In this document: positions 1,420-36,509 of the stretch, one piece after another
How positions within the stretch are numbered: the first letter of the stretch is position 1
Layout: each line of letters starts with the position of its first letter
NCBI GenBank assembly: GCA_963836075.1
Contig: CAWIIB010000009.1
Coordinates: 3,330,442 to 3,394,441 of the forward strand
Direction of reading: 5' to 3'
From: an uncultured Acidobacteriota bacterium
GTDB taxonomy: Bacteria > Acidobacteriota > JAQAZP01
Length of the DNA stretch: 64,000 nucleotides
Notes under the pieces: model-generated
What the model saw: the letters and a program-made list of their open reading frames with translations, nothing else
Databases searched by the model: none
What the model was told of the DNA's origin: nothing
Made by a program: the position numbers and the translations under genes

Positions 1420-2630
1420 GCCTCGCCGTTACCGCATCGCCATGGTGGCCGCCTGCCCCTTTCCCACCTGTCAGGGATCGCAGGTGCTGGTCAGGCAGAC
1501 CGCCGAGTCCCTGGCCCGGCGCGGGCACCAGGTGCATCTGATCTGCTACCATTTTGGCGAGGAGATTCCGCTGCAAACATCGGAGCAGCTGGTGCTGCAC
1601 CGCATCGCCTACCCTTCGATCTACCGCAAGTACCGGGCCGGGCCCTCGATCCAGAAGCCGCTGCTCGACGCGTTGATGGTCCGCTTGCTGCTCAAGGTGA
1701 CCCGCCGTCACCGCATCCAGGTGGTCCACGCCCACAACTACGAAGCGCTGCTGGTGGGGCTCAGCTCCAGGCTGTTCAGCCGCACCCCGGTGGTTTTTCA
1801 CTCGCACAACGCCATCAGCGACGAGTTGAGTTCCTTTTTTCGCTCCACCCGGGCCAGGCGGCTGGCCGACCGGGTGGGCGGGCTGATCGACGGCAGCATG
1901 CCCCGGCGGGCCGACCACGTGATCGCCATCAACGACGAACTGGAGCGCTTCTTTCTAGACCATGGAGTGGGGGAGGGGCGGATCTCCTGCCTGCCCCCGG
2001 GGATCGCACTGGAGGAGTGGTCGGAAAGGCCCCTGGCCGACGGATCGCCGGAATCGGCCGCCCTGGAGGCGCTGGACCGCTGGCTGGGGGAGCAGGAATC
2101 GGTCGCTCTCTATGCCGGCAATCTCGATGACTACCAGAACCTGCCGCTGATGTTCCGTGCCTTTGTCCGGGTGCGTGCGCAACTGCCCCAGGCGAGGCTG
2201 GTGGTGGTCAGTCGCTCCGACCCCCGACCGTACCAGGGAACTGACCGCCGAACTGGGCCTGGCCGATGTTGTTCTGTTCGTCGATCACACCAGCTTTCAG
2301 CTGGCCCGCCAGGTCTTCCGCCGCTGCCGGGTGGCCTTGCTGCCCCGGATCTCATGGTGCGGTTTCCCGATCAAGCTGCTCAACTACATGGCCGCCGGCC
2401 TGCCGGTAGTGGCCAGCCAGGGCAGCGCCAAGATCGTCTACCACGGTGAATCGGGCCTGGTGGTGCCGGATGGCGACGAGGAGGGTTTTGCCGCAGCCGT
2501 GACCCGGCTGCTGTCCGAGCCTGACACCGCCAGGGCCATGGGCCATGCCGGACGGCAGCGCGTGGAAGCGGAACATGGCTGGGATACGCACACCCACCGG
2601 CTGGAAGAGATTTACGCCTCCCTGGTCTGA
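1412..2630 (+). pseudogene. Glycosyltransferase family 1/GT4 (GT-B fold), frame broken at the C5 run 2221-2225
   Basis: The N-terminal part is in the frame of ORF 1274..2449 (MTEPRRYRIAMVAACPFP...). The C-terminal part is in ORF 2157..2630 (ELTAELGLADVVLFV...GESGLVVPDGDEEG, an E-x7-E motif). Deleting one C restores ...VVVSRSDPDRTRELTAELGL... Confidence 0.7.
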
Positions 2631-2679: not shown

Positions 2680-3042
2680 TCATGGCGCGTAGGTCGTCAC
2701 CACCTGCAGGCTGGTGTCCGTATCACCCGCCGGCGCGTACGGCGGAAAGTTGTATGGCGGCGGTGTCACGTCCTCGGCCACCAGGCGAAAGCGATTCTCG
2801 CCGATCACCGTGGCCAGGGCCGGGATGTTCTGCATCCAGCTGGTGGTATAGTTCTCACCGGGGGAGAGGTTGGTATAGCCGGCTCGCCAATTCGGGAAGT
2901 AGGACTTGTTGGCCAGGACCACGTCGATGCGCGCCGCCATCCGCCGGGTCTGCTCGCTGTGGTTGTTTACCAGGGAGATCGACATCAGGGTGCTGAAGGG
3001 CACTGTTCCAACCGAAGGCACCGAGGTGATCGTGGCCGAGAT
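2680..3042 (-). other. Shared C-terminal module, copy A (last 120 aa)
   Basis: Aligns without gaps to copies B and C. Shared strings include SYFPNWRAGYTN, EDVT, PPY, GD and a terminal AP. Confidence 0.7.
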
Positions 3043-5775
3043 CGTGGGGGGCAGGGCGTGGCACAGTTCCAGGTGGCTCGGTTCCATGCCCCAGTTTTCC
3101 ATGAACGGGTTCTCAGCGGGCGGCGAGATGGCGGTAGAGGTCATGGTGTAGCCGCCGCCGGGCGGGTACTGGTCCGAGGTGATCAGCGTCTCGCTGCTGA
3201 ACAGGTAGCAGTTTCTCACCATGCCGTCTCTGTCGGTGTGTGCCACGAACGCCTGCACACTGGACGAACCGAAGCTGGTCGTGGACCCGGCAGCGGCAAA
3301 GCCGTCCTCGTGGACCACCAGGGCTTCGAAATTGTCTTCGCCGCCACTACCGATCCGGTGGGCCCAGAGTGCTTGCCCCTCACTGTCGAAACGGCAGAGT
3401 AGGGCGTCATTTGTCGCTCCCCGTACCTGACTGATCCTCCCGCATCCCACCACATCGCCGTCCCCGGTCGGCTTCAGGTCGTAAAGACTTTCGTAGTTCG
3501 ATGTCTCCGCTGTGCGGAACCACTGGCGGGTGCCGTTGCCGGCCAGCTTGACCAGCAGGATGTCGGTGTCGCCGTAGCTGTTGGTGTGACCGCCGAGCAG
3601 CAGGTCGCCACCCGACAGTTCAACTATGCCGTAAAACCTGTCGACACCGGCGCTCCCCGACTGAGAGCACCAGGTGAAGCTGCCGTCATCCTCCATGCGA
3701 ACGGCGATGGCATCCTGGTCGCCACCGTCCGGGTTGGAGTAGCCGGCAATCACCGATCCTCCGCCGCTGAGCGCTATGCCCCGGAGGCCCACTTCGTTCT
3801 GCGCTGTACCCAGCGTCCGCACGGACGGCACGGTGCCGGCGGATGTCAACTCCACCGCCAGCAGGTCGAACAGCCCTTCACCGTAGCTGTCGGTGTTGCC
3901 CACAGCCAGGTAGTTCCCGTCGGATTTCCGGTGGATCGACCAGAGCCGGTCGAACTGGGTGCCGCCGGTGACCGAGGTCCAGAGCACGGCGCCGCCGGAG
4001 TCGAAGCGCATCATCAGCGCATCATCCAGGCCGGCGCCGTAGGTGCTCGTGTATCCCACCACAATGCATCCGCCGTCGTCGGTGACCAGCAGGTCACGGG
4101 GGATTTCATCGTACATGCCGCCGGCTTCCCTGGCCCATTCCAGATCGCCCAGGGCGTCGTATTTGAGCAGCAGCACATCGGTGTTGTAGATACCCACCCA
4201 GGACTGGGTGGCCACGAGGTAGCCCTGGTCAGGGGTTTGCCCTATGGCATCGGCCCAGTCCGGGTCGTCGCGGCCGCTGGCCACCAGCCAGTATTCGGGG
4301 TCCAGGGGTTCATAATCGCATAGGGAATCCCAGTAGAAATACGGATTGACGGCGGTGGTGGTGTAAGCCTGTTCGCCCAGGGTCACCGGGGAGACAGCGA
4401 GGGTCACCGCGGACCAGGCCGGCGTTTGCAGCGGTGAGTAGGTGTCCCAGGTGCGGATGTGGGGGCACCCCGGAACCTGACCGTTGGCGTCCACCGCCGC
4501 CAGTATCGTATCCTGTTCGCCCGTGCCGAAGGGGGTCCTGGTGCCGGCCAGCAGATAGCCCCCGCCAGGCCGGTTGTGTACCTGGCCGGCACGCTCGAAG
4601 CCGTCATCCCCCAGGATACGGACCCACTGCAGACCGCCCACGTCGTCGAAGTCGATCAGCAGGACGTCCTCTAACACGCCGCCGTCGTCACTATCGCCGC
4701 ACACCATGAATCCGCCCCCCTCTCGAAGGGCCAGGGTTTCTCCGCTCTCATCCACGCCCGCGTCGCCCAGGGAGCGGGCCCAGTAGAGCGTTCCATTGGC
4801 GCCGAACCGGGCCACCAGGACATCCTTGGTGCCGGAGGGGTCGTAGTCCTGGGTGGCACCGGAGGCGAAAAAATCACCATTTGGTGCTTCCACGGCATCG
4901 AACAGATAGGAGTAGCCGACATCATCCCCCACCACCGTGGTCCAGGAGACCGTGGTTGTGTCGGCGAACTTGATCAGCAGGCCCTGGGCGTGTGTGGCGA
5001 AACTGCTCGACCAGCCGGTGGCGATGAAGCCGCCATCACTGGTGGCGCTGAAGGACCGGAGGATATCGTTGCTCGAGTCGCCGACGACGGTGGTCTGGAT
5101 CAAATCACCGGTGAAGTCGAACTCCAGCAGCAACACATCGACACTGCCCGGTCCGTATCCGGATCCGTGCGCACCGACGGCCAGGGTGTCGTCGGTGGTG
5201 AGGCAGATGCCCGCAGGGTAGATGGCGGCAGAGCTGCCGGCAAGACGGGTCCACTGGATCGTGCCGTTGGTGTTGTATCTCACCAGCAGAACCCGTGGTT
5301 CTTCTTCACCCAGGACTTCGGTCTTGCCCACCGCCACGAAGGTCCCGTCGGGCAGCTCACAGACGGCTGTGTAAAAGTCGTTCCCCCCGAGGTTCAGAGC
5401 GGAGGCCCAGACCAGGTCCCCCTCGGCATCGTGTCTCATCAGGTGGGCATCAAAGAAATTTCCGGCGGAATTCCAACTGTATCCGGCCACCACCGAGCCG
5501 CCGTCAGCGGTCACGATCATATCCATCGCGTAATCGTAGTCGGGGCCTCCTCCATAGTCGAGGAACAGGTGGTCCCCATCGGCCCGGCTTTTTCCATGGA
5601 GGCCAGCTGCATATTCCGCGGTGACGTCTCTGGACTGAACGTCCACGTGGTGAACCGCTGTCTCCACATCCACGGATCGTGTCTGGAAATCTGCTGCGGA
5701 AACCGCGGCAGGAGCGGTAACGGCCAAAAGGGCAGTGAGGAAAACAGACAGAACGATGATGTGTTTCCGGATCAT
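2680..5775 (-). CDS. Large secreted beta-propeller-repeat protein (SBBP/delta-60-like repeats) with the shared 120-aa C-terminal module
   Basis: A signal peptide follows the internal ATG at 5775 (MIRKHIIVLSVFLTALLAVTAPAAVSA), with GGAG 10 nt upstream. There are more than 15 repeats of the D-G-x-hydrophobic-x-G...D-x-L-L-x-hydrophobic...G-x-x-W type. Confidence 0.6.
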   Translation of the reverse strand: MIRKHIIVLSVFLTALLAVTAPAAVSAADFQTRSVDVETAVHHVDVQSRDVTAEYAAGLHGKSRADGDHLFLDYGGGPDYDYAMDMIVTADGGSVVAGYSWNSAGNFFDAHLMRHDAEGDLVWASALNLGGNDFYTAVCELPDGTFVAVGKTEVLGEEEPRVLLVRYNTNGTIQWTRLAGSSAAIYPAGICLTTDDTLAVGAHGSGYGPGSVDVLLLEFDFTGDLIQTTVVGDSSNDILRSFSATSDGGFIATGWSSSFATHAQGLLIKFADTTTVSWTTVVGDDVGYSYLFDAVEAPNGDFFASGATQDYDPSGTKDVLVARFGANGTLYWARSLGDAGVDESGETLALREGGGFMVCGDSDDGGVLEDVLLIDFDDVGGLQWVRILGDDGFERAGQVHNRPGGGYLLAGTRTPFGTGEQDTILAAVDANGQVPGCPHIRTWDTYSPLQTPAWSAVTLAVSPVTLGEQAYTTTAVNPYFYWDSLCDYEPLDPEYWLVASGRDDPDWADAIGQTPDQGYLVATQSWVGIYNTDVLLLKYDALGDLEWAREAGGMYDEIPRDLLVTDDGGCIVVGYTSTYGAGLDDALMMRFDSGGAVLWTSVTGGTQFDRLWSIHRKSDGNYLAVGNTDSYGEGLFDLLAVELTSAGTVPSVRTLGTAQNEVGLRGIALSGGGSVIAGYSNPDGGDQDAIAVRMEDDGSFTWCSQSGSAGVDRFYGIVELSGGDLLLGGHTNSYGDTDILLVKLAGNGTRQWFRTAETSNYESLYDLKPTGDGDVVGCGRISQVRGATNDALLCRFDSEGQALWAHRIGSGGEDNFEALVVHEDGFAAAGSTTSFGSSSVQAFVAHTDRDGMVRNCYLFSSETLITSDQYPPGGGYTMTSTAISPPAENPFMENWGMEPSHLELCHALPPTISATITSVPSVGTVPFSTLMSISLVNNHSEQTRRMAARIDVVLANKSYFPNWRAGYTNLSPGENYTTSWMQNIPALATVIGENRFRLVAEDVTPPPYNFPPYAPAGDTDTSLQVVTTYAP

Positions 5776-5965: not shown

Positions 5966-6934
5966 TCAGCAGGAGTGGTGGACCGTGGTGAAGGGGATGA
6001 CCAGCGGGAAGCGGTCGGACAGTTCCTCCACCAGGCGGTGCTGTTCACCAGGGGCGGTGAGGGCAATGACAGCCCCGCCGCCGCCTGAGCCGGTGAGCTT
6101 GGCCCCCAGGACGCCTTTCTGCCGGCGCAGCAGGGCAGTGGCCCGGTCGAGTTCAGGCGTGGAGACACCCAGTTGAGCCAGCAGCTCGTGGTTGCGGTTC
6201 ATCAGCTCGCCGGTTTTGGCCAGGTTGCCGGAGACCAGAAGGCTGCTCGCCTCTTCCGCAATCCGGCCGATTTCATTGAGCAATCCCTTGACCAGCCGTT
6301 CGTCCAGGACCAGGTTCTGGCGCACCCTGCGCACCTGCTCCAGGGTGGAGGCTCCAGGTTCGACGATACCGATCAGGCCCGACGGCGGGGTGGGGATGCG
6401 GAGGGGCAGGATTTCCCGCGGGGGCCCCTTGCGAAACCGGAGCACGCCATCGGCCAGCACGGTGGCGGCGTCCATGCCGCTGGGGTTGCCGTGAAAGATC
6501 GATTCCAGCTGCTGCACGTCGTCGAAGAGCGTGCTCTCGCTGTCGCTCTCCTCATGTCCGGCATGGCGGCGCAGGGCCTTGCAGACCCCGGCGGAGAATG
6601 CCGCCGAAGAACCGAGACCCATACCCACCGGCAGGTCCGACTCCACCTCCAGGGCGATGGGCTCCTGTTCCAGGTTGTAGATCGAGAGGCCCTGCTGCAC
6701 CGCCCGGGAGAAGAGATCGAAGCTCGACTCCGGTTCGGTCTCGCCGAAATACTGCTTGAACCGCGGGCGGACCAGCCGCGGCCCCCGGGGATCGTGGCTC
6801 ACCCGGATGCGCATTCCGATGTCGATGGGGGCGGCGATGCCGGGATGGCCGTAAACCGTGGCGTGCTCGCCAAAGAGAATCAGCTTCCCCGGAGCCGGTA
6901 CCTCGAAGGGCAGGTTGGCCTGATTTCTGTTCAT
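5966..6934 (-). CDS. mvk: Mevalonate kinase (GHMP kinase)
   Basis: PGKLILFGEHATVYGHPGIAAPI, GLGSSAAFSAGVC and KLTGSGGGGAVIAL motifs. Lies 8 nt downstream of the IDI-2 gene. Confidence 0.85.
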   Translation of the reverse strand: MNRNQANLPFEVPAPGKLILFGEHATVYGHPGIAAPIDIGMRIRVSHDPRGPRLVRPRFKQYFGETEPESSFDLFSRAVQQGLSIYNLEQEPIALEVESDLPVGMGLGSSAAFSAGVCKALRRHAGHEESDSESTLFDDVQQLESIFHGNPSGMDAATVLADGVLRFRKGPPREILPLRIPTPPSGLIGIVEPGASTLEQVRRVRQNLVLDERLVKGLLNEIGRIAEEASSLLVSGNLAKTGELMNRNHELLAQLGVSTPELDRATALLRRQKGVLGAKLTGSGGGGAVIALTAPGEQHRLVEELSDRFPLVIPFTTVHHSC

Positions 6935-6941
6935 TGGGCGT

Positions 6942-8018
6942 TTACGATTCGTGCCATCCCTTGGCGGAGAGCCAGCGGAACAGTTCCCCGGTGTAGACCC
7001 GGGGCGCCCGCTTCAAGGCAGCGAGGTCTCCGGCCCCGGTGAGCACCATGGCGTTTTTCAACTCACGAATCACCCGGTCCACATACTGGTCCGCGCCGTG
7101 GACGCCCCCTTCGCGGTAGGCGAGGAACACCGAGCGGGCAAAACCGACCAGGTCGGCGCCGGCGGCGATGGCCCGTGCGGCGTCGAGACCGGTGATGATC
7201 CCCCCGGCGCCGATGATGCAGGTGCCGGGACGGCAGGTCCTGCGGGCGGCGATGATGCTGAAAGCGGTGGGAATGCCCCAGTCGGCAAAGGTACCGGCGA
7301 TCTGCCTCGAGGAGTCGTCAACTTCGCGGTGCATCTCCACCTTGGTCCAGGAGGTGCCCCCGGCCCCGGCCACATCGATGCAGGTGACCCCGGCCCGGTC
7401 GAGCATGGCCAGGGTCTCAGGGCTCATTCCTGCGCCGGTCTCCTTGACCAGTACCCTGCCGGGGATGCGTTTGACCAGCTTTTCCAGAGCGTTGAGGATT
7501 CCGCCGAAGTTGCAGTCCCCCTCGGGCTGCACCAGCTCCTGGGCCGGGTTGAGGTGGATGCAGATGGCGTCGGCCTCGATCTGTTCCTTGAGCCCGGCGA
7601 TGGCGGCGGTATCGTATTCCAGCAACTGGGCCCCGCCGATGTTGCCCAGCAGTACCGACTCGGGGATGTGACTGCGCACGGCGAAGTCGGTGAGCGCCTC
7701 GGGGTGGTCGAGGATCACCCGCTGGCTGCCCACCCCGAACCCGATGCCATGCTCGGCGGCCACGGTGGCCAGATCACGATTCATCGCCCCGGCCAGCTCG
7801 GTGCCGCCGGACATGCTGGTGATCAGCAGCGGGGCCCTGAGCTTCCGCCCGAAGAACTCCACCGATGTGTCCACACTGTCCAGGTCGATTTCGGGCAGGG
7901 CCTGGTGGAACAGCCGCACGTGCTCCAGCAGGGTGGTGGACGCGTGGGCCACCGGTTCCTCGGCCACGATCCGCAGGTGATCGGCCTTTCTCGTCCTGAT
8001 TTGATGGTCCCTGGCCAT
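6942..8018 (-). CDS. fni: Isopentenyl-diphosphate delta-isomerase type 2 (FMN-dependent)
   Basis: 358 aa. Has RKADHLRI at the N-terminus and a TIM-barrel FMN oxidoreductase pattern (VKETGAGMS, IDVAGAGGTSW, IIGAGGIITGLD). Confidence 0.85.
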   Translation of the reverse strand: MARDHQIRTRKADHLRIVAEEPVAHASTTLLEHVRLFHQALPEIDLDSVDTSVEFFGRKLRAPLLITSMSGGTELAGAMNRDLATVAAEHGIGFGVGSQRVILDHPEALTDFAVRSHIPESVLLGNIGGAQLLEYDTAAIAGLKEQIEADAICIHLNPAQELVQPEGDCNFGGILNALEKLVKRIPGRVLVKETGAGMSPETLAMLDRAGVTCIDVAGAGGTSWTKVEMHREVDDSSRQIAGTFADWGIPTAFSIIAARRTCRPGTCIIGAGGIITGLDAARAIAAGADLVGFARSVFLAYREGGVHGADQYVDRVIRELKNAMVLTGAGDLAALKRAPRVYTGELFRWLSAKGWHES

Positions 8019-8049
8019 GTCTCCTCGACTGAAAAGTTATATCCGAAAG

Positions 8050-8077
8050 ATGTTAGAACATTTTTCCAGTCTGTCAA
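8050..8077 (-). promoter_or_regulatory. Candidate sigma70 promoter for fni-mvk
   Basis: On the minus strand: TTGACA (8077-8072), a 16-nt spacer, then TAACAT (8055-8050). This is about 30 nt upstream of a GAGGAGA RBS and the ATG at 8018. Confidence 0.3.
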
Positions 8078-8152
8078 GGAATTCCTGTGCTGCCGAGCCT
8101 GTCCGGCAACCTGTCCGGGCCCCACTCGTCCCCGTCGGCCACCGAAGAAAAC

Positions 8153-8181
8153 TTGACCCCGTATAAGGAAAGACCTACACT
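8153..8181 (+). promoter_or_regulatory. Candidate sigma70 promoter for the FG-GAP gene
   Basis: TTGACC (8153-8158), a 17-nt spacer, then TACACT (8176-8181). A GGAGGG RBS lies at 8191-8196 and the ATG at 8203. Confidence 0.35.
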
Positions 8182-8202
8182 TTCCAAAATGGAGGGCGAG
8201 CC

Positions 8203-10723
8203 ATGAACACTCTTCTGCGCCACCTTCTCCCTTTCGTTATCGTTGCGGTACTACTTACATTCTGTTCCGGTTTGTCGGCCCTGGCCCACCCCTGGCTCTT
8301 CGAGGCGAGGATGGACTTTTTTGCCAACGATGAACCGGGAGGCATCGCCCATGGCGATTTCGATGCCGATGGTGCCGTCGATCTGGCGGTGACCAATTAC
8401 GGATTGGAAACGATCACGATTTTCTTGGGCAAGGGGGACGGCACCTTCGATGAGCTGGGAGTATACGTCGTGGGGCACGAACCCTCATCGCTGGCCGCCG
8501 GGGACCTGAACGGCGACGGCCGGCCGGACCTTGCGGTATCCATGACATCTCCAGGATCGGTGCATGTTCTGCTGGGCAATGGTGACGGCACCTTCCAGGA
8601 TGCCGTGCCCTACGGGACCGCTTCCGGCACGTATTGCGTGGTCATCGCCCACCTGGACTCCGATACGATTCCCGATCTGGTCACATCCAATTTTTACGAG
8701 GACTCTGTTTCCGTCTTTCTGGGCAACGGGGATGGAACATTCGAACATCTGGGAGACCAAGGCGCCGGTGACGGTCCCGCGTGGGTGGCCGTGGACGATT
8801 TTGACGGTGACGGGGATTCCGATCTGGTTACGGCCAATGCCTTTGCCCACACTGTCCGCATTCTCCTGGGAAACGGAGACGGCAGTTTCCAGGCCGGCGC
8901 GGCCTACCAGGCTGGAAGCGACCCGAGGTCGGTGGCTGTGGGCCTGTTCAACGATGACAGCCACCCGGACCTGGTGGCGGCCAATCACCAGTCGGACTAT
9001 CTCTCGCTGTTTCTGGGCAACGGTGATGGTACGTTCCAGCAGGCAATACAGATCGATTCCCACTTCAACATCCGTTCCCTCTCCGTTTCCGACCTTGATG
9101 AGGATGGTCATCAGGACCTGGTGACGGCAAATGTTGGAGACGATACGATCTCGGTGATGGCCGGCAACGGAAACGGCACTTTCGACGCGGCTGTGGACTA
9201 CCGTACCGCCGAAGCCCCGTTGGACGTTGCGGTCGTGGACCTGGACGGTGACGGAATGTCCGATCTCAGTGTGGTGAACTTCTGGAGTGACAACATCTCG
9301 ACATTCAGGGGTAACGGGGACGCCACCTTTGTTGTGCCGTTCTCCATCGAGGTCCATGAACATCCCTGGTCGGTGGCCGCTGCAGATTTCAACGGCGACT
9401 CCATCCTCGACCTGGTGTCCGGCTCCGGGGTAGAGAGTTTGATCTCAGGTCCTGCTGGGATACGGTGACGGCACCTTCCAGACTCCCGTGGACTATTCCG
9501 TGGGCGAAGAGCCGCAATCGATCGCCGTACGTGATCTGAACGGTGACGGCGCCCCTGATCTGGTCACCGCCAACTACGACTCTGACGACCTGTCGGTGCT
9601 GCTGGGCAATGGTGACGGAACATTCCAGTCCGCGGTGGCGTACCAGGTCGGTAACGGTCCCGAATCGGTGGCCGCCGGCGACCTGGATGGTGACGGCATT
9701 CCCGACCTGATGGCGGCCAACAAGTACACCGACGATGTATCGGTGCTGCGGGGCAATGGTGACGGCACGTTTCAGGCCGCGGCATCGTTTCCAGCCGGTG
9801 ATTCGCCAGGCGGAATGGCCGCCGGCGACCTGGACGGCGACGGGGCTCTCGACCTGGGCGTGGCCACGATGGATGGCCTCGCCGTGCTTGCGGGGAATGG
9901 TGGGGGGGCATTTGGGAACCCCGTGTTCTACCCGGCAGGCCCGGACCCCTCCGCCGTGGTCATCGGCGATTTTGATGAGAACGGCATCCCGGACCTGGCG
10001 GTGACCAACTACGAGAGCGACTATATTTCAATGTTTCTGGGTGTCGGTGACGGCACCTTTCAGGCCGCCATGAACCACGCGGTGGGCGACAAGCCCTATG
10101 CCATTGTCGCCGGCGATCTGGACGGGGACTTTCACCTCGACCTGGCGGTGGGGAACATCATCAGCAACAATGTCGCCGTCCTGCCGGGCCACGGTGACGG
10201 CACCTTCGGCGACGTCTTGTTCTACGGTGCCGGATCCGGTCCTCCGACCCTCGCCATCGGAGACTTTGACCGGGATCGCCACCTCGACCTGGTTTCACCA
10301 TCCACCGCCGACAGTCACCTTGAGCTGCTCTTCAACACCACCGGCCTGGTCAAGGGCACCATCTGTGCCGGCCTGGACTGCACACCGTCCTGGGGCACAC
10401 TGCCGTTCCCCGTCACCATGTCGGTGAGGGTGGACAACCTCTATCCCGGGCAGACCCGGCAGTTCGACGCCCGGATCCACGCCACCCTGGCCAGCGGCCA
10501 GTCCATTTACAGCTGGAAGGAGGGGTACCTGAACATCGCCGGCGGCTCCAGCCACACCGTATCCTGGACCCAGGGCTTTCCGCTGCACGACTCCCTGGTG
10601 GGCGAAAACCTCTTCATTCTGGGGACCGAGGATGTCACCCCCACACCCTTCAACCAGCCACCCTACCCGCCGGCCGGGGACAAGTGGGGGGATGACTGCA
10701 CGGTGACCGGCATGGCCCCATGA
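8203..10723 (+). pseudogene. Secreted FG-GAP/VCBS-repeat protein (~840 aa) split by a 1-nt frameshift near 9448, carrying the shared C-terminal module
   Basis: ORFs 8203..9468 and 9488..10723 both consist of the same ~55-aa repeat (DLNGDGxPDLV...S/VLLGNGDGTFQ). The second frame is open from 9443. Removing one G of GG 9448-9449 reads ...ESLISVLLGYGDGTFQTPVDYSVG... A signal peptide is present (MNTLLRHLLPFVIVAVLLTFCSGLSALA). Confidence 0.65.
10361..10723 (+). other. Shared C-terminal module, copy B (last 120 aa)
   Basis: Aligns without gaps to copies A and C. 42 of 120 positions are identical in all three by hand alignment. Confidence 0.7.
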
Positions 10724-10825
10724 ACCGGCGATTGACTGCATGTCGGCGGTGACATATCCTTCAGTTGCTGTTTTTCCACTCGATCTACAACGGGATCAGA
10801 TTGTTACGGATCGCGAAGGAGGACC

Positions 10826-12106
10826 ATGACGCTCAAGTCATTTCTCGGCCTGGTGGATGAACGTTCCCTGCTGACAAGGGTCTCCCGGCCGGTGGATGTG
10901 CGTTACGAGCTGGCCGCGGTGGCCGGCCGTCTGGGTGAGAAACCGGTTCTGTTCAGCCAGGTAAAAGGCCATGACATGCCGGTGGCGGCCAATGTCTGTG
11001 CCAGCCGGGAACTGGTCTGTCTGGGCCTGGGTGTCTCCGCCGGCAACCTGGTGCCGCGGATGATCGAGGCCATCGACCACCCCCGGGAGCCGGAGGTGGT
11101 GCAGGCCGAGGGATACGAGGAGCGTGCGGCAGACCTCTCGGCGCTGCCGATCCTGACCTACTACCCGCGGGACGGGGGCCCCTATATCGCCTCCGGCATC
11201 ATTTTCTGCCAGGACCGGGAACTGGGTCTCAACGCCTCCTACCACCGGGCCATGGTCATCGGCGAGGACCGGCTGGCGCTGCGGATCCTGCCCCGCCACC
11301 TGCACCAGTACATGGAGCGGGGCCTCACCGAGTTCGCCTTCTGCATCGGCAACACCATCCCGGTGCTGGTGGGTGCGGCCATGTCGGTGGAACTGGACAA
11401 GAGTGAGCTGGCCATTGCCAACGCCCTGCAGCACACGGAGGCGGTGAAACTGGAGGGCCATCTGATCCCGCAGAGCGAGCTGGTGCTGATCTGCGAGTTC
11501 ACCGGTGAGCAGGCTGACGAGGGGCCGTTCCTCGACCTCACCGAGACCTTTGACATCGTGCGCAAGCAGCCGGTGGCCCGGGTGAAAAAGGTGTTCGCCC
11601 GGCCCGATTCGGTCTATCATGCCCTGCTCCCCGGCGGTCCGGAGCACAAGATCCTGATGGGCATGCCGCGGGAGCCGACCATTTTCAGGGAGGTGTCCCG
11701 GTATTGTGACTGCCTGGATGTCCGGATCACGCCTGGTGGCTGCTCCTGGCTCCACGCCGCGGTGAAAATCCGCAAGCAGGACGGTCTTGACGGCAGGCGG
11801 GCCATCGAGGCCGCCTTTGCCGGGCACAGTTCCATGAAGCATGTCTTCGTGGTGGACGAGGACATTGACATCGACGATCCGCATGCTCTGGAGTGGGCTC
11901 TGGCCACCCGTTTCCAGGGGGACCGGGACCTGGTGGTGCGGCCCGGGGAAAAGGGCTCCTCGCTGGACCCGTCGGCCGATCCGGAGACCCGGGAGACCAC
12001 CAAACTCGGTTTTGACCTGACCATCCCCGCCGGGGGGGCGCCGGAGAAGTTCCTGCGTCCCGAGCCCCCGGTGAAAGTGGACCTCGAGGACTACCTGGAG
12101 AACTGA
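10826..12106 (+). CDS. UbiD-family decarboxylase (candidate anhydromevalonate-phosphate decarboxylase)
   Basis: 426 aa with UbiD-like segments (PVLFSQVKGHDMPVAANVCASRE, GGPYIASGIIFCQD, SWLHAAVKI). Sits immediately upstream of the AcnX pair and IPK. Confidence 0.75.
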   Translation: MTLKSFLGLVDERSLLTRVSRPVDVRYELAAVAGRLGEKPVLFSQVKGHDMPVAANVCASRELVCLGLGVSAGNLVPRMIEAIDHPREPEVVQAEGYEERAADLSALPILTYYPRDGGPYIASGIIFCQDRELGLNASYHRAMVIGEDRLALRILPRHLHQYMERGLTEFAFCIGNTIPVLVGAAMSVELDKSELAIANALQHTEAVKLEGHLIPQSELVLICEFTGEQADEGPFLDLTETFDIVRKQPVARVKKVFARPDSVYHALLPGGPEHKILMGMPREPTIFREVSRYCDCLDVRITPGGCSWLHAAVKIRKQDGLDGRRAIEAAFAGHSSMKHVFVVDEDIDIDDPHALEWALATRFQGDRDLVVRPGEKGSSLDPSADPETRETTKLGFDLTIPAGGAPEKFLRPEPPVKVDLEDYLEN

Positions 12107-12113
12107 CCGAACC

Positions 12114-13301
12114 ATGGAACTGAGCAGGGAACAGCAGCGGCTGCTGGACGGCGAGCAGGGAGAGGTGACCTCCCGCCTGATGCGCCTGCTGGTCAGCCTG
12201 GGTGAGATCTTCGGGGCCCGGCGGATGGTGGATGTGGGCTCGACCCAGGTGTCCGGCGTGTCGTACAAATCGATCGGCGAGCCGGGGCTGGAGTTCCTTG
12301 AGGACCTGGCCCGGGAGGGCGTGCAGGTGAGAGTGCCCACCAGCCTCAACCCGGCCGGCATGGACCTCCAGGGCTGGCGGGAACTGGGTATCCCCGAAGC
12401 CTTTGCCGTGAAACAGCAGCGGATCATGGCCGCCTTTGGCGCCATGGGGATCACCGCGCCGCCCACCTGCACCCCCTACCTCATCGGCAGCGTCCCCCAA
12501 CCCGGCGAGCACGTGGCCTGGGCCGAGAGCTCGGCGGTGATCTTTGTCAACTCGGTGCTGGGGGCGCGGACCAACCGCGAGGGCGGCCCGTCGGCCCTGG
12601 CCGCGGCGGTCTGCGGCTGCACCCCCTGCTACGGCCTGCACCTCGACGAAAACCGGCGGCCCACGGTGCTGGTGGAGGTGGACGCCCGTCTCGAATCCAA
12701 CGCCGACTACGGCGCCCTGGGCTACTGCCTGGGCCGCAAGGTGCGCGGGGCCATCCCCTTCATCACCGGGATCGAAGCGGCCGGCAGGGACAACCTCAAG
12801 TCGTTCGGCGCGGCCATGGCGGCCAGCGGAGCGGTGGCCCTGTACCACGCTCGGGGGGTGACTCCCGAGGCGCCGGAGATGCCCACCGCCGGCCTGGAGC
12901 GGATCAAGGTGGGGCAGGGCGAGCTGGACACGCTGGCCGCCGGTCTCGATGCCGGGGAGACCCCCGACCTGGTGGTCACCGGCTGTCCCCACGCCTCGCT
13001 GGAGGAGGTGGCCGCGGTGGCCGGGCAGGTCCGCGGACGGACGCTCCGTGTGCCGGTCTGGGTCTGCACCTCCCGGGTGATCAAGGAGCGGGCGGAGAGC
13101 GAGGGCTACCTGGCCCGGATCGAGGCCGCCGGCGGACGTATCGTGGCCGACACCTGTATGGTGGTCTCACCGCTGGAGGAGCTGGACTACGGGGTCACCT
13201 CGGTGGACTCGGGCAAGGCAGCCAACTACCTCCCCGGGTTCTGCCGGCAGAAGGTGAACTTCCGCGACCTTCACGACATCATCGAGGAGGTGCTGGAATG
13301 A
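12114..13301 (+). CDS. Aconitase X catalytic subunit (DUF521-like; candidate phosphomevalonate dehydratase large subunit)
   Basis: 395 aa. MVDVGSTQVSGVSYKSIGEPGLEFLE, CTPYLIG and ESSAVIFVNSVLGARTNREGG match AcnX-type patterns. Overlaps the next gene by 4 nt. Confidence 0.75.
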   Translation: MELSREQQRLLDGEQGEVTSRLMRLLVSLGEIFGARRMVDVGSTQVSGVSYKSIGEPGLEFLEDLAREGVQVRVPTSLNPAGMDLQGWRELGIPEAFAVKQQRIMAAFGAMGITAPPTCTPYLIGSVPQPGEHVAWAESSAVIFVNSVLGARTNREGGPSALAAAVCGCTPCYGLHLDENRRPTVLVEVDARLESNADYGALGYCLGRKVRGAIPFITGIEAAGRDNLKSFGAAMAASGAVALYHARGVTPEAPEMPTAGLERIKVGQGELDTLAAGLDAGETPDLVVTGCPHASLEEVAAVAGQVRGRTLRVPVWVCTSRVIKERAESEGYLARIEAAGGRIVADTCMVVSPLEELDYGVTSVDSGKAANYLPGFCRQKVNFRDLHDIIEEVLE

Positions 13302-13681
13302 AGGGCCGGACCATCATGACCGGCAGGGCTGAAGGCCGGGCGCTGGTTTCGCGGACGCCGATCAGTTTCTACGGCGGGGTTGACGCCAAAACCGGGATGA
13401 TCATCGAGCAGGGGCACGAACTGGAGGGGCAGTGTCTCAGCGGCACGATCCTCGTCTTCCCCTGCGGCAAGGGCTCCACCGTGGGCTCCTACGTGATCTA
13501 CGGCCTGCAGAAGAACGGCGTGGCCCCGCTGGCCATCGTCAACGAGGAGACGGAGACCATCATCGCCACCGGCGCCATCCTCGCCGGGATTCCCTGTGTG
13601 GACGGGGTCGACATCAGCGGCATCAGCAGCGGCGACAGACTGCGGGTGGACGGCGCCGCCGGCCTGGTGGAAAAGGACTGA
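13298..13681 (+). CDS. Aconitase X swivel subunit (DUF126-like; candidate phosphomevalonate dehydratase small subunit)
   Basis: 127 aa with GRAEGRALVSRTPISFYGGVD...ILVFPCGKGSTVGSYVIY. The ATGA overlaps the large-subunit stop. Confidence 0.75.
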   Translation: MKGRTIMTGRAEGRALVSRTPISFYGGVDAKTGMIIEQGHELEGQCLSGTILVFPCGKGSTVGSYVIYGLQKNGVAPLAIVNEETETIIATGAILAGIPCVDGVDISGISSGDRLRVDGAAGLVEKD

Positions 13682-13688
13682 ACCGGAG

Positions 13689-14471
13689 ATGGGACAGCAA
13701 CTGGTTTTCGTCAAGCTGGGCGGGTCGCTGATCACCGACAAGACGAAGCCGTACACCGCCAGGCCTGAAGTGATCGCCCGGGCGGCGTCCGAGATTCACC
13801 GGGCGCGGAACAAGGCCGGTCTGGCCCTGCTGGTGGGCCACGGCGGCGGCAGCTTCCCCCATGTCAGCGCCGCAAAGTACCGGATTCACAAGGGAGCCTC
13901 CGATGCCCGGGGCTGGGAGGGTTTTGCCAGGGTGCAGGCCGATGCGGCGCGACTGAACCGCATGGTTGTTTCGGCGCTGCTGGAAGCCGGGGAACCGGCC
14001 ATCTCCGTCCAGCCTTCGGCGGCCTGCCTGGCCCGGGACCGCCGTCTGGAGCGCTGGGATGGCCAGGCGCTGGAGCAGTGCCTGGCCCGGGGCCTGGTGC
14101 CGGTACCTTACGGCGATGTCTGTTTTGACGAGGCCCGGGGCTGCTGCATCCTCTCCACCGAGGAGATCTTCCGCTTTCTCGCTCCGCGGCTCCGACCTGC
14201 GCGGATCATCATGGCCGGCAAGACCGACGGCGTGCTGGACGAGGAGGGGAACACCGTCCCCGAGCTCACCCCCGCGGACCTCGGTCGAATGAAGAGTGCA
14301 CTCTCCGCCTCGGACGGCGTGGCCGACGTCACCGGCGGCATGGTGCACAAGGTGGAGAGGGCCCTGGAGACCGGTGTGGCCACCCTGATCATCAACGGCC
14401 TGCGGCCCGGGGAACTGGAGAAGGCCCTCCTCGGCCGCCCGGTGGCCGGCACGCTGGTCACCCGCGGCTGA
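13689..14471 (+). CDS. Isopentenyl phosphate kinase (amino-acid kinase fold)
   Basis: Internal ATG at 13689, 8 nt after the upstream stop. Has LVFVKLGGSLITDK and GHGGGSFPH motifs, 260 aa. Confidence 0.8.
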   Translation: MGQQLVFVKLGGSLITDKTKPYTARPEVIARAASEIHRARNKAGLALLVGHGGGSFPHVSAAKYRIHKGASDARGWEGFARVQADAARLNRMVVSALLEAGEPAISVQPSAACLARDRRLERWDGQALEQCLARGLVPVPYGDVCFDEARGCCILSTEEIFRFLAPRLRPARIIMAGKTDGVLDEEGNTVPELTPADLGRMKSALSASDGVADVTGGMVHKVERALETGVATLIINGLRPGELEKALLGRPVAGTLVTRG

Positions 14472-14481
14472 CAGCGCAGGA

Positions 14482-15549
14482 TCACTGCGGCCGCAACTCC
14501 TCGATGACCGACGCGTCCACCCAGTAGACGTCCGAGTTTCCGTTGCGCGGCTGGCCGTGACTCTGCAGGAACTCCTTGTAGCTCCGGCCGCCGTCCGTGG
14601 AGTCCTTTTCCGTCCCCCGGTTGGAGGCGAAGAAGAGATACCTGCCGTCGGGGGACAGGCTGGCCGAAACCACCCGGTTCCCCGGGGTGTTGAACTTCTC
14701 ACCCATGTTCAGCGGACCGGTCCAGCTGTCGTCCTCGGCGCGGAACGAGATGTAGTAGTCGGCCAGCCCGATGGCGTCCTCCCGGCCGGCCATGCCGTAG
14801 ATGAGGAAACGCTCGTCCGGATCGATGAAGGCGTTGAACTGGGTGTCTCCGGCGTTCACTTCGGCCGGCAGGGCCACCGCCGCCAGATACGCCCCGTCCA
14901 CCATCCTGGAGCGGAAGATCAGGTTCCGCGTCTTCCCCTCTTCTTCCACATCGCGGGTGAAGTAGATATTTCCCTCCCTGGTGGTGGAGGGGAAGAACTC
15001 CGCCGCCTCGCTGTTCACCGGCGGTCCGAGGTTGTAGGGTTCGCTCCAGCCGTCGGCGGTGCGGTCCATGGCCCAGATGTCCTGGTCGTGCCACCCGGGT
15101 GTCGGTTCGGTGCCGTCTCCGGGCCGGGTGGAGAGGAAGAGAAACCGTGAGCCGTCCGGTGTGATGTGCGGTTCGAGGTCGTAGATCGCCGGGTGGCTGG
15201 AAAAGCCGGCGATCTCCGGCTCGGTCCACCTGCCGTCCACCTGGCGGCTGACCACCAGCGCCACCTGGTTGCGGGCCATCAGGCCGAAGTAGAGCTCCTT
15301 GCCGTCCGGAGTGATGACCACGTCCCGTTCGTAGAGACCGGTGGAGAGGATCCCCGGGGCAAAGAGCTGCGGTTCCAGGCCCGGGGGCTCCTGCCCCAGG
15401 TAGTCCCCCTCCAGAACGGGGAAGGCCGTGGGACAGCATGCGCTGTCCGCGTTGACGGCGTCCTCCGAGGCCGGGGGTGAACCGCAGTGCCATGCTGAAA
15501 GCCCGAGCACCAGGATCAGGGAAACAGTGCGGTAAATCCGTGCATTCAT
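14482..15549 (-). CDS. PD40/TolB-like beta-propeller lipoprotein
   Basis: Signal peptide with a Cys (LGLSAWHCG). Repeated (I)TPDGKELYF / PDGSRFLF / SPDGRYLFF motifs. Confidence 0.6.
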   Translation of the reverse strand: MNARIYRTVSLILVLGLSAWHCGSPPASEDAVNADSACCPTAFPVLEGDYLGQEPPGLEPQLFAPGILSTGLYERDVVITPDGKELYFGLMARNQVALVVSRQVDGRWTEPEIAGFSSHPAIYDLEPHITPDGSRFLFLSTRPGDGTEPTPGWHDQDIWAMDRTADGWSEPYNLGPPVNSEAAEFFPSTTREGNIYFTRDVEEEGKTRNLIFRSRMVDGAYLAAVALPAEVNAGDTQFNAFIDPDERFLIYGMAGREDAIGLADYYISFRAEDDSWTGPLNMGEKFNTPGNRVVSASLSPDGRYLFFASNRGTEKDSTDGGRSYKEFLQSHGQPRNGNSDVYWVDASVIEELRPQ

Positions 15550-15662
15550 GATGACCTCTAAGCGTTGTGGAGATCGTTGCTGATGGACAAACGCGTACGG
15601 CCCCGCGCCGCACGTTTCTTGCTAGCAACTATACAACGGGTTGGCCGGGCGTGCCCTTTTTG

Positions 15663-16562
15663 TCAGCCGATAAAGATGCCGATGGCCATCAGAATCGGCG
15701 TGGCAATCACAATGATCACGTTGCGGCCCAGGAAGGGCACCAGCTCGGGTATGGATGTGGCGTACCTGGCCGCGCCTCGAGCCGTTGGGATGGCGAGGAG
15801 CAGTGTGCCCAGACCCAGCAGGGCGAAGGGTGGAAGTTGCCGGAGGACCACACCGAGGACGATGGAGAGATAGGCCAGGGCGAGGAACGTGATGTAGACC
15901 CGGACCGCGGCCGGGACGCCCCAGGCGATGGGCAGGTGGTGCCGGCCCACTTCACGATCGGCATCTACATCGGGGAACTGGTTGATCAGCAACAGGTTGC
16001 TGACCAGGAAAAAGGGGACCAGCGAGGCGATGAATGAGGGCCAGTTGTAAGTCCCGGTGAGGGCGAAGTGTGTGCCCATCACCATCAGCGGCCCGAAGCC
16101 GAGACCCGGGGCGATGAGGCAGATCAGGGGGCTGCGGGTGATCCAGCGGGTGTAGAGGACGATGACCAGCAGGCCCAGCAGACCGAGGGGAATGATCCCC
16201 CAGCCGCGGAGGATGGTGAAATAGACGCCCACCGATACGGTGAACAAAGCCGAGGCCACCCCGGTGAGCAGGGCCACGTGGGCCTGCCCCGGGTTGCCGG
16301 GCAGGGCGCCGCTGCCGCCGCTGAACGGCGTGCGCTCGGTCTTCATGTCGAGGCCGGTGCGAAAGTCGTCGAACTCGTTCAGGGCGTTTACGCTGATGTG
16401 TGCCGCCACGGCACCGGCGAGGGCCATAATCACCGGCAGCGGTGAGATGGAGGCGCCGCTCCAGACCGCGGTGGCCACGCCCGCCAGCACGCAGGCCGGG
16501 GTGAGGATCAGAAAAGGCAGGCGCATCGGCCCGAACAGGGGGCTGGGAGCGGCGTCGGTCAT
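15663..16562 (-). CDS. UbiA-family (MenA-like) membrane prenyltransferase
   Basis: 299 aa and polytopic. The first Asp-rich motif NEFDDFRTGLD fits N-[DE]-x2-D-x3-G-x-D. Confidence 0.65.
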   Translation of the reverse strand: MTDAAPSPLFGPMRLPFLILTPACVLAGVATAVWSGASISPLPVIMALAGAVAAHISVNALNEFDDFRTGLDMKTERTPFSGGSGALPGNPGQAHVALLTGVASALFTVSVGVYFTILRGWGIIPLGLLGLLVIVLYTRWITRSPLICLIAPGLGFGPLMVMGTHFALTGTYNWPSFIASLVPFFLVSNLLLINQFPDVDADREVGRHHLPIAWGVPAAVRVYITFLALAYLSIVLGVVLRQLPPFALLGLGTLLLAIPTARGAARYATSIPELVPFLGRNVIIVIATPILMAIGIFIG

Positions 16563-36127: not shown

Positions 36128-36173
36128 TCCGGAATCGCCGTCCGGACGGGGAAAGATCGAGGAGGAGAGGCAG

Positions 36174-36509
36174 ATGGCCGACGAACGGAGGAGACCGAAA
36201 AGAGAGGAGACCGGGCCAGGTCCCGGTGGCCTCGGTGATGTGTTTGCCGGACCCGAAACGGGCGGGGCGGTAACGGTTTGCCATGGACCGTACAGCGAGG
36301 ATCTGCCGGTGGGCAACATGAGTGTGGGTGAGGTCCGGCGCCGGTTCTCGGACCGCCTGGACATCGACCCCCAGAGCCAGGCGGTGATCGACGGCAACGA
36401 GGTGGACGACAGCACCGTGCTGCGCGGCGGCCAACTGCTGGCCTTTATCCGGCAGGCTGGTGAAAAGGGCGGGAGGAGACGGTCCCACGGGGGAGGATCG
36501 CCATGTTGA
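36174..36509 (+). CDS. Second ubiquitin-like (ThiS/MoaD-type beta-grasp) protein with an internal GG followed by an 11-aa tail
   Basis: RBS GGAGGAGAGG. VTVCHGPYSEDLPVGNMSVGEVRRRFSDRLDIDPQSQAVIDGNEVDDSTVLRGGQLLAFIRQAGEKGG-RRRSHGGGSPC. Overlaps the next gene by 7 nt. Confidence 0.6.
   Translation: MADERRRPKREETGPGPGGLGDVFAGPETGGAVTVCHGPYSEDLPVGNMSVGEVRRRFSDRLDIDPQSQAVIDGNEVDDSTVLRGGQLLAFIRQAGEKGGRRRSHGGGSPC

Follow-up and report, generated by a model that had tools for sequence, protein, structure and literature searches.

The locus at 5966-14471 of the 64-kb stretch of DNA that was analyzed here (the window) raises the question of whether a bacterium may synthesize isopentenyl diphosphate (IPP) by the route of archaea, as the earlier note on this DNA had proposed. 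Six lower-pathway genes are all packed into this one 8.5-kb block. The minus strand carries one operon, idi2-mvk, and the plus strand a second one, ubiD-acnX(large)-acnX(small)-ipk. In a bacterium, the block very likely represents the lower half of the archaeal mevalonate pathway in full, i.e. the trans-anhydromevalonate-phosphate route. An archaeal-type lower mevalonate module is really present and, as judged from its sequence, is probably functional. The type IIb residues of the AcnX pair and the position of the UbiD homologue in an AcnX-linked clade support the proposal, in which the enzyme activities, their expression, and a role as the cell's IPP route are predictions.

Every gene of the earlier list was recovered at its coordinates by open reading frame (ORF), Pfam, and NCBIfam checks. 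On the minus strand, mvk (mevalonate kinase, 322 aa; 5966-6934) is the second gene of its operon and begins 7 nt after idi2, which encodes a type-2 (FMN-dependent) isopentenyl-diphosphate isomerase (358 aa; 6942-8018). On the plus strand, ubiD (UbiD-family decarboxylase, 426 aa; 10826-12106) lies 7 nt upstream of the gene for the AcnX large subunit (395 aa; 12114-13301), and the latter overlaps the gene for the small (swivel) subunit (127 aa; 13298-13681) by 4 nt (ATGA, 13298-13301), an overlap that had been noted before and is real. The last gene, ipk, encodes isopentenyl phosphate kinase (13689-14471). The listed ORF for this kinase opens at 13596; the true start is most likely the ATG at 13689 because the resulting 260 aa is the length called in relatives. 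Sigma-70-like promoter matches were observed upstream of idi2 (TTGACA-16-TAACAT, 8050-8077, minus strand; 10 of 12 consensus positions) and of ubiD (TTGACT-17-TATCCT, 10732-10760, plus strand), and a GAAGGAGGA ribosome-binding site precedes ubiD (10814-10822, plus strand), all of these being consensus matches only. The region holds 5 sigma-70-like sites versus 1.1 +/- 1.0 in shuffles.

The two halves are parted, as previously described, by a frameshifted FG-GAP repeat gene on the plus strand (8203-10723; Pfam FG-GAP_3 and FG-GAP), which a 1-bp insertion near 9447-9450 breaks into two ORFs, 8203-9468 and 9488-10723. Its orthologue is an intact 842-aa ORF in two relatives (L002 and L081). An assembly indel is probably the cause because two further window genes carry frameshifts of the same kind. 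L001 lacks the FG-GAP gene and has the idi2-mvk and ubiD-acnX-ipk operons directly adjacent and divergent, and in L082 a hybrid histidine kinase takes the place of this gene. The FG-GAP gene is a variable insert between the operons and not a member of the pathway. The two operons were probably once adjacent and divergent, with variable genes having been inserted between them since.

Regarding the two kinases and the isomerase, the curated NCBIfam (equivalog) cut-offs were passed in each case. MVK scored 209.6 bits with TIGR00549 (cut-off 163), contains both GHMP domains in Pfam, and had MVK of Methanosarcina mazei (6mde/4hac, 110 bits) as its top PDB matches; it is predicted to phosphorylate mevalonate to mevalonate 5-phosphate. 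IDI-2 scored 351 bits with TIGR02151 (cut-off 281), and its top PDB match was the IDI-2 2zru (246 bits); it is predicted to interconvert IPP and DMAPP. These scores bear out the mvk and type-2 IDI that had been placed on the minus strand. IPK, which would convert isopentenyl phosphate to IPP, reached 184.5 bits with NF040647 IPPK_Arch (cut-off 120), and its top PDB matches were the archaeal IPKs 3ll9 and 3k4o. The Pfam and NCBIfam domain scores similarly confirm UbiD, both AcnX subunits, and IPK on the plus strand.

The AcnX large subunit belongs to PF04412 (522 bits) and the small subunit to PF01989, the latter with 173 bits in NF003046 (cut-off 163). Their top PDB matches were the chains of the type IIb AcnX from T. 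kodakarensis (TkAcnX), namely 7cnr_A for the large subunit (337 bits, E = 1e-99) and 7cnr_B for the small subunit (144 bits, E = 2e-41), and type I hydroxyproline dehydratase scored lower (215 bits for the large and 67 bits for the small subunit). The cluster and substrate residues of TkAcnX have been defined (PMC8184944; ligand definitions also in PMC10040528). All three [4Fe-4S] ligands (equivalents of TkAcnX Cys110, Cys283, and Cys342) are kept in the window protein, and the site-C cysteine of type I is absent, position 344 being Val as in TkAcnX. The mevalonate-5-phosphate contacts G48, V49, S50, N79, E129, S130, S131, K361, and Y365 of the large subunit and S62 and T63 of the small subunit are identical, and the GKGSTVGSY catalytic loop of the small subunit is conserved. 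The sole differences at the site, A47S and N53S, both also occur among the AcnX homologues compared, with position 53 being Asn, Ser, or Thr in 53 of 54. Type I AcnX has the same fold and the general acid-base serine loop, but consists of one fused polypeptide whose [2Fe-2S] cluster sits on a C-x-C motif (Cys508-x-Cys510 in the wild type; PMC8184944), and it binds hydroxyproline via Asp, Ile, Trp, and Thr. In contrast, the window AcnX consists of two subunits with phosphate-binding residues; it reads CMV at the C-x-C position, has Ser and Ser at the equivalents of type I Asp203 and Ile206, and possesses an aconitase-like third cysteine (GCPHAS), unlike type I. The aligned type I PDB entry reads CWV at the C-x-C site. 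In the tree, the window protein and the other AcnX homologues compared are set apart from the type I outgroup with a bootstrap of 100. By its residues, the pair is of the phosphomevalonate dehydratase type (type IIb) and not a hydroxyproline dehydratase. This heterodimeric [4Fe-4S] enzyme would convert mevalonate 5-phosphate to trans-anhydromevalonate 5-phosphate.

The UbiD homologue contains all three UbiD Pfam domains (UbiD_N, UbiD, and UbiD_C), scored 300 bits with TIGR00148 (cut-off 245), and is 60-66% identical to archaeal homologues. Its top PDB match was the furandicarboxylate decarboxylase HmfF (213 bits), and AMPD has neither a curated model nor a solved structure for comparison. HmfF (PDB 6h6x/6h6v) and E. 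coli UbiD share the three-domain fold, and the N-x4-R, PRH, and EGPF segments align, which is consistent with a dependence of the window protein on prFMN. The neighbor-joining (NJ) tree places the protein inside the AcnX-linked UbiD clade with a bootstrap of 100, and it carries the EGPFLDLTETFD motif of that clade; nearly all AcnX-linked homologues compared read EGPF[VIL]D[LI]T, versus EGPFGE in HmfF, so that the second Glu of HmfF is Asp in the window protein (EGPFLD) and in nearly all AcnX-linked members compared. Many of the loci compared from archaea and Chloroflexota also have the order UbiD-AcnXL-AcnXS, frequently together with UbiX. The UbiD homologue was assigned as trans-anhydromevalonate-5-phosphate decarboxylase (AMPD), a putative prenylated-FMN-dependent enzyme that would convert trans-anhydromevalonate 5-phosphate to isopentenyl phosphate.

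The genes flanking the cluster are bacterial; among them are those for a sigma-54 activator, for an ECF sigma factor and the cognate anti-sigma factor, for ABC-F proteins, and for MatE. The GC3 of the six genes is 0.83-0.91 versus 0.83 +/- 0.05 for 27 other genes, and the codon bias of the cluster matches the host. Synteny extends over the cluster and its flanks in L001, L002, L081, L082, and L083, with amino-acid identities of 67-95%, and an independent assembly (L088) is 99.96% identical to window positions 9599-14802 without gaps. All six pathway genes are intact and full length, whereas three other window genes are frameshifted. The phylum assignment of the clade, Acidobacteriota, is based on how the submitter labelled a single related MAG, L002.

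With respect to the remaining partners, neither a second GHMP-kinase-fold protein (PMK/DMD) nor HMGR nor UbiX was found in the 64 kb by Pfam searches of 53 ORFs, which include most of the longer ones, together with tblastn (best E = 0.6 for UbiX); PMK and diphosphomevalonate decarboxylase had already been reported as absent from the window, and none was found among the ORFs scanned. HMG-CoA synthase and thiolase were also not found within the window. By tblastn, UbiX and HMGR were not found in flanks of up to 10 kb around the clusters of clade relatives, including L002 and L081-L083 in the case of UbiX, and a metagenome scan for HMGR had no contig of the window's clade among the matches listed. 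In L003 and some 30 further loci, UbiX adjoins the cluster. A UbiA prenyltransferase-like gene is present nearby on the minus strand (15663-16562; PF01040), as previously pointed out, and has no demonstrable link to the cluster. It scored far below every MenA, UbiA, and MqnP cut-off (top model MenA, 92.8 bits versus 264), reached no specific cut-off among the MenA, UbiA, and DGGGP-synthase prenyltransferases, and had no PDB relative; it belongs to a large family whose members are about 300 aa long, of which the few organism-labelled ones are bacterial, and the homologue contexts examined contained no MVA genes.

Other explanations of the locus need to be weighed against this pathway. The AcnX pair may be a dehydratase of the hydroxyproline type and the UbiD homologue a decarboxylase of (hetero)aromatic acids, neither having a role in isoprenoid synthesis, and some relatives are in fact labelled "2,5-furandicarboxylate decarboxylase 1" by JGI. 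We consider this reading very improbable. The AcnX subunits scored far below the cut-off of 700 bits for NF051439 (292.6 bits for the large and 87.7 bits for the small subunit), and, instead of the third cysteine of type I (C-x-C) and the residues that bind hydroxyproline, they have the type IIb set; hydroxyproline dehydratase was rejected on these grounds, and a grouping of the pair with such enzymes, which had been suggested as a check, was not observed in residues, PDB matches, or tree. An aromatic-acid decarboxylase was also rejected for the UbiD homologue, which stayed far below all of the specific cut-offs, covering aromatic-acid decarboxylases of the UbiD, VdcC, MqnL, and phenylphosphate carboxylase types (VdcC, 137.7 versus 650; UbiD, 99.9 versus 788; TIGR03701, 105.9 versus 496; TIGR02724, 61.5 versus 469), has the EGPFLD motif, and falls in the AcnX-linked clade rather than with aromatic-acid decarboxylases. 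Moreover, its genomic setting is isoprenoid and not that of aromatic catabolism, AcnX and UbiD being in one operon with IPK and beside MVK and IDI-2. An artefact of assembly or binning, by which archaeal DNA was joined to a bacterial contig, would fit the archaeal nature of the closest named AcnX and UbiD homologues beyond the clade and the signs of indel errors in the window. However, the junctions with FG-GAP, PD40, UbiA, MatE, and the sigma-54 regulator recur in L002, L081, L082, L083, and L088, which are independent assemblies from different samples, GC and GC3 match those of host genes, and the nearest named archaeal homologues reach an identity of only about 59-66%; an artefact is extremely unlikely.

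The genes may also be genuine without being the main source of IPP, the module being an accessory or salvage branch, fed by external mevalonate or isopentenyl phosphate, or a remnant in decay next to a complete MEP pathway. The lack of HMGS, HMGR, and UbiX in the 64 kb and of HMGR and UbiX in the flanks of relatives is in line with this possibility, as is the occurrence of an MVK-HMGR fusion in the nearest outside lineage (L089 and L090), versus MVK alone here. Nevertheless, archaea and Chloroflexota often have the genes of the upper pathway and UbiX at unlinked sites, and, therefore, their absence from the window says little; furthermore, the six genes are all intact in a window with three frameshifted ones, and the cluster is kept, catalytic residues included, in five assemblies. 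A salvage branch or remnant appears unlikely, and we favor the complete lower mevalonate pathway.

The origin of the module was assessed by bootstrapped NJ trees of AcnXL and UbiD, which had limited sampling and left out the characterized enzymes of A. pernix, M. mazei, and Ca. P. breve. The two trees agree, with the window clade supported by a bootstrap of 100 in both. It is joined by Schekmanbacteria in the AcnXL tree (97) and by Schekmanbacteria and P0152 in the UbiD tree (96), and further by Hadarchaeota, Aenigmarchaeota, and Thermoplasmata (98 for AcnXL and 100 for UbiD). AcnX and UbiD were also seen to group with those of Schekmanbacteria and one MAG labelled Deltaproteobacteria. The main Chloroflexota clade is separate from the window clade in both trees, and the window AcnXL and UbiD share only 40-54% identity with their Chloroflexota counterparts. 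This branching, together with the low identity, implies that the archaeal route seems to have been acquired here separately from Chloroflexota. The dehydratase and decarboxylase genes were probably acquired jointly from archaea close to Hadarchaeota and Aenigmarchaeota, in an event independent of Chloroflexota. The recipient was probably an ancestor that Schekmanbacteria-like bacteria either had in common with this lineage or traded genes with. The full scenario, in which a non-Chloroflexota lineage labelled Acidobacteriota took the route from such archaea in a separate event and now depends on it as the sole source of IPP, the MEP pathway having been lost or never present, is offered tentatively, and we regard it as somewhat less than probable.

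In A. pernix and M. mazei, the route comprises MVK, PMDh (AcnX type IIb), AMPD (UbiD, assisted by UbiX), and IPK (Hayakawa et al., 2018; described in PMC10040528 and PMC8184944). The window shares this enzyme set. Its AcnX likewise has two subunits, the three Cys ligands, and the contacts to mevalonate 5-phosphate, a UbiD homologue is encoded beside it, the final kinase is IPK, and the isomerase is a type-2 IDI. The window differs in that the host is bacterial, the six genes occupy 8.5 kb in two operons, UbiX is not linked, and the proteins share only about 60-66% identity with their nearest archaeal homologues. The route of haloarchaea and Chloroflexi, which uses a phosphomevalonate decarboxylase and IPK (Dellas et al., 2013; PMC3857490), is similar in its MVK and IPK and in its passage through isopentenyl phosphate; however, it relies on an ATP-dependent GHMP-fold decarboxylase, in place of which the window has the AcnX dehydratase and UbiD decarboxylase, with no second GHMP-fold gene in the window. 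This replacement saves one ATP. An archaeal mevalonate pathway in a bacterium is less unprecedented than the earlier note implied because Candidatus Promineifilum breve, a member of Chloroflexota, has been documented to possess it (Kanno et al., 2024, AEM; cited in PMC13001223 and PMC12547664), and Chloroflexota is the only bacterial phylum reported to have it in the literature that was searched. Related Chloroflexota loci (L035, L054, and L060) have the same UbiD-AcnXL-AcnXS order; nevertheless, the lineage of the window differs from that of Ca. Promineifilum breve, being labelled Acidobacteriota for the relative L002, and the archaeal-type lower mevalonate module now extends to a bacterial lineage beyond Chloroflexota.

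The mevalonate cluster genes that had been named for this locus in the earlier note were all recovered by a six-frame ORF listing combined with Pfam and NCBIfam scans. On the minus strand, idi2, encoding a type-2 IDI (6942-8018; TIGR02151, 351 bits against a cut-off of 281), is followed after 7 nt by the mevalonate kinase gene mvk (5966-6934; TIGR00549, 209.6 against 163). On the plus strand, a UbiD-family gene (10826-12106), the product of which carries all three UbiD domains in Pfam, lies 7 nt before the gene for the AcnX large subunit (12114-13301; PF04412, 522 bits), which shares the 4-nt overlap ATGA, as previously described, with that for the small subunit (13298-13681; PF01989; NF003046, 173 against 163). 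The isopentenyl phosphate kinase gene ipk (NF040647, 184.5 against 120) starts 7 nt further on; its ORF is listed from 13596, and the ATG at 13689 fits a protein of 260 aa, the length called in relatives. Promoter-like hexamers were found upstream of idi2 (8077-8050, minus strand) and ubiD (10732-10760, plus strand), and together with the gene spacing they indicate that the block reads as two operons; ubiD is also preceded by the ribosome-binding site GAAGGAGGA. This six-gene arrangement is unusually compact. An independent assembly (run ERR11523668) matched positions 9599-14802 at 99.96% identity without gaps, and an Rfam and tRNA search of the window returned no match.

Regarding the AcnX pair, membership in the hydroxyproline dehydratases (type I) was weighed against membership in the phosphomevalonate dehydratases (type IIb). 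The large subunit scored 337 bits against the type IIb enzyme of T. kodakarensis (7cnr_A) versus 215 against the type I hydroxyproline dehydratase of A. tumefaciens, the corresponding values for the small subunit were 144 and 67, and the NCBIfam hydroxyproline-dehydratase model reached only 293 bits against a cut-off of 700. Residues were checked at the positions defined crystallographically in T. kodakarensis numbering (PMC8184944), which have also been confirmed for the A. pernix enzyme (PMC10040528). The large subunit retains all three [4Fe-4S] ligands (Cys110, Cys283, and Cys342) as well as G48, V49, S50, N79, E129, S130, S131, K361, and Y365, and lacks the C-x-C cysteine of type I; its two departures, A47S and N53S, fall inside the variation of 54 homologues. 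The GKGSTVGSY loop with the catalytic Ser and Thr is retained in the small subunit. Scores, cluster ligands, and substrate-contact residues thus all favour type IIb, and by all available sequence criteria the pair is a predicted phosphomevalonate dehydratase.

The corresponding question for the UbiD homologue was whether it belongs with the aromatic-acid decarboxylases or with trans-anhydromevalonate-5-phosphate decarboxylase (AMPD). Its top PDB match was the furandicarboxylate decarboxylase HmfF (213 bits); to our knowledge, neither a structure nor a curated model of AMPD exists. The specific NCBIfam models were all far under their cut-offs. Outside its own clade, the nearest homologues are archaeal (60-66% identity; Aenigmatarchaeota, Hadarchaeota, Thermoplasmatota, and Hodarchaeaceae), and the order UbiD-AcnXL-AcnXS (large and small subunits), often with UbiX, recurs in many of the compared loci, including those of Micrarchaeota, Bathyarchaeia, Altiarchaeota, Thorarchaeota, haloarchaea, and Chloroflexota. 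The N-x4-R, PRH, and EGPF segments align with HmfF, and their retention presumably fits a prFMN enzyme. The segment EGPF[VIL]D[LI]T[EG]T is common to nearly all of the AcnX-linked UbiD homologues compared and reads EGPFLDLTETFD in the window protein (residues about 225-236); HmfF has EGPFGE, the second Glu of which, which we take to be the acid-base residue, aligns with the Asp of EGPFxD. Homology, gene order, and this segment, as three independent lines, place the UbiD homologue in the AMPD group, and the Asp of EGPFxD might be used as a signature when anhydromevalonate-phosphate decarboxylases are annotated. UbiD-AcnXL-AcnXS(-UbiX) clusters were also observed in four haloarchaeal MAGs (Natrialbaceae, Halobacteriales, Halococcoides, and Natronomonas), a group usually described with the phosphomevalonate-decarboxylase route.

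UbiX, HMG-CoA synthase, and HMG-CoA reductase (HMGR) were absent from the 64-kb window, and tblastn detected neither UbiX nor HMGR in the flanks of the relatives in the window clade. UbiX, the source of prFMN, accompanies the cluster in about 30 loci of archaea and Chloroflexota and not in the window clade. In the Schekmanbacteria locus (L003, 6325-10409), UbiD, a HAD hydrolase, AcnXL, AcnXS, and a UbiX-like flavoprotein lie in a row, with UbiX directly after the small subunit. In a scan of JGI metagenomes for HMGR, with a query alignment built from HMGR-MVK fusion proteins, no contig of the window clade was among the matches listed, which did include IDI2-HMGR-MVK arrangements in the sister lineage. 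Since the lower module is intact, conserved, and complete, we infer that the organism makes IPP by the archaeal-type route.

The two halves of the cluster are separated by a frameshifted FG-GAP gene, as stated in the earlier note: the ORFs 8203-9468 and 9488-10723 (plus strand) belong to a single gene that one additional base near 9447-9450 has split, and the orthologue is an unbroken 842-aa ORF in two of the related assemblies (L002 and L081). In a third (L001), no gene intervenes and idi2 and ubiD are directly divergent, and in a fourth (L082), a hybrid histidine kinase takes its place. As judged against intact orthologues or their own continuation, a GT4/GT1 glycosyltransferase gene (1412-2627, plus strand; near 2230) and a tricorn-like protease gene (44959-48448, minus strand; near 47140) are also frame-split, and the six pathway genes are all unbroken. 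Three frameshifts per 64 kb in a single-contig genome of 3.5 Mb favour assembly indels over gene decay, which suggests that the window frameshifts are indel errors of the assembly. Considering the two further split genes and the variability of the gene between the operons, a biological meaning of the FG-GAP frameshift was set aside, and the gene itself has little meaning for the mevalonate pathway. Separately, a C-terminal domain of approximately 120 aa, 44-49% identical between copies (10346-10720 and 57593-57955, plus strand; 2683-3045, minus strand) and carrying the motif ...GENxFxLxxEDVTPxPxNxPPYxPAGD..., ends the FG-GAP protein, an M28 peptidase, and a 1046-aa beta-propeller protein, which are secreted and otherwise unrelated. 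Pfam reported no domain over this segment in the three proteins; its role may be in sorting or anchoring.

The nearby UbiA/MenA-like prenyltransferase was present at 15663-16562 as a UbiA-superfamily gene, and neither its MenA identity nor a functional tie to the cluster held: it fails all specific models (best MenA, 93 bits against a cut-off of 264), and no solved relative was found in the PDB. Its homologues form a large family of prenyltransferases of about 300 aa, the few organism-labelled members of which are bacterial, and mevalonate genes were absent from the neighbourhoods of homologues examined elsewhere. Its nearness to the cluster is kept within the window clade, with a PLD-family gene beside it in relatives. 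This gene, two-domain and cardiolipin-synthase-like, lies between PD40 and UbiA in L081 (12345-15693) and L082 (12349-15727); the window (14482-16562) has none, and its PD40-UbiA gap is only 113 nt. Neither GGGPS nor G1P dehydrogenase was found among the window ORFs scanned. A role of UbiA as a pathway member or archaeal-lipid prenyltransferase was rejected on account of the unrelated contexts examined, the bacterial labels of the few labelled homologues, and the absence of these two enzymes from the scanned ORFs.

The genomic surroundings of the cluster are bacterial. Regulatory proteins encoded in the window include a sigma-54-dependent response regulator with its kinase and an ECF sigma factor paired with a zf-HC2 anti-sigma; also present are two ABC-F proteins, MatE, secreted proteins of the PD40 and FG-GAP types, and subunits of a 2-oxoacid:ferredoxin oxidoreductase. 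The cluster together with PD40, UbiA, a 156-aa ORF, MatE, and the sigma-54 regulator is syntenic in five assemblies of other samples, one of which (L002) was deposited as an Acidobacteriota MAG, with pathway proteins 67-95% identical. A recent transfer visible by composition was rejected, since GC and GC3 are host-like (GC3 of 0.83-0.91 in the six pathway genes versus 0.83 +/- 0.05 in 27 other genes, i.e., the same). Elsewhere in the window, an operon-like run (29291-39175, plus strand) encodes a Prok-RING finger protein, a ThiF/E1-like protein, four ORFs without Pfam matches, an AAA ATPase, another unknown protein, a Prok-JAB deubiquitinase-like protein, and a second ThiF/E1. The ATPase has a weak, sub-threshold proteasomal OB-domain match (20 bits against 23), PADLOC gave weak E1 matches only, and GC falls to 0.535 just upstream (28001-30000); the run resembles a ubiquitin-like conjugation system of prokaryotes.

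The origin of the dehydratase and decarboxylase genes was examined in neighbour-joining trees, which are simple distance trees, rooted with type I AcnX and HmfF, respectively. With 100 bootstraps and limited sampling, the window clade received 100 in both trees; its union with Schekmanbacteria received 97 for AcnXL and was not scored alone for UbiD, in which the clade additionally including a MAG labelled Deltaproteobacteria (P0152, UbiD only) received 96; and the further union with a Hadarchaeota/Aenigmarchaeota/Thermoplasmata group received 98 (AcnXL) and 100 (UbiD). Both trees give the same picture, with the main Chloroflexota clade apart from the window clade and identity to the Chloroflexota versions only 40-54%. 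This concordance, with Chloroflexota placed elsewhere, suggests that the dehydratase and decarboxylase genes were transferred together and arrived in this lineage independently of Chloroflexota. Two sequences labelled Chloroflexota (L032 and L075) were placed among archaea, and the number of transfers thus needs proper analysis. The other pathway genes have different histories from AcnX and UbiD. Among the loci compared, IPK is closest to those of Anaerolineae (45-46%), and the nearest MVKs outside the window clade (52-57% identity) are a 773-aa HMGR-MVK fusion protein preceded by IDI2 (L089, 683-3004) and an MVK directly after HMGR, with IDI2 before them (L090, 4892-8256). Further HMGR-MVK fusions of 745-952 aa, one with a NUDIX domain, were also observed (P0451, P0466, and P0511).

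The anhydromevalonate-phosphate route was long held to be restricted to archaea and has been used in debates on the lipid divide and on how isoprenoid synthesis arose. If a second, phylogenetically distinct carrier among the bacteria is confirmed, its AcnX and UbiD genes nested within archaeal ones, then an oxygen-sensitive, ATP-saving module would have passed between the domains at least twice. In bacterial MAGs, the pathway is masked by automatic annotations such as "predicted aconitase", "UbiD family decarboxylase", and "2,5-furandicarboxylate decarboxylase". The compact six-gene cassette, with predicted expression in a high-GC bacterial host, could interest users of archaeal genes in E. 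coli. The finding is of use to pathway engineering and to the history of isoprenoid synthesis.

The pathway of this cluster is one already described in A. pernix, and it has been reconstructed from M. mazei. Its bacterial occurrence is attributed, in the passages of PMC13001223 and PMC12547664 that cite Kanno et al. (2024), to Chloroflexota (Ca. Promineifilum breve), and a 2026 review names Chloroflexota as the sole bacterial carriers; full-text literature searches for Acidobacteria with the pathway enzymes returned nothing relevant. Taken together, the present cluster represents a second bacterial lineage with the archaeal-type route, apparently acquired from a separate archaeal donor, and thus a new carrier of a known pathway rather than a new mechanism.
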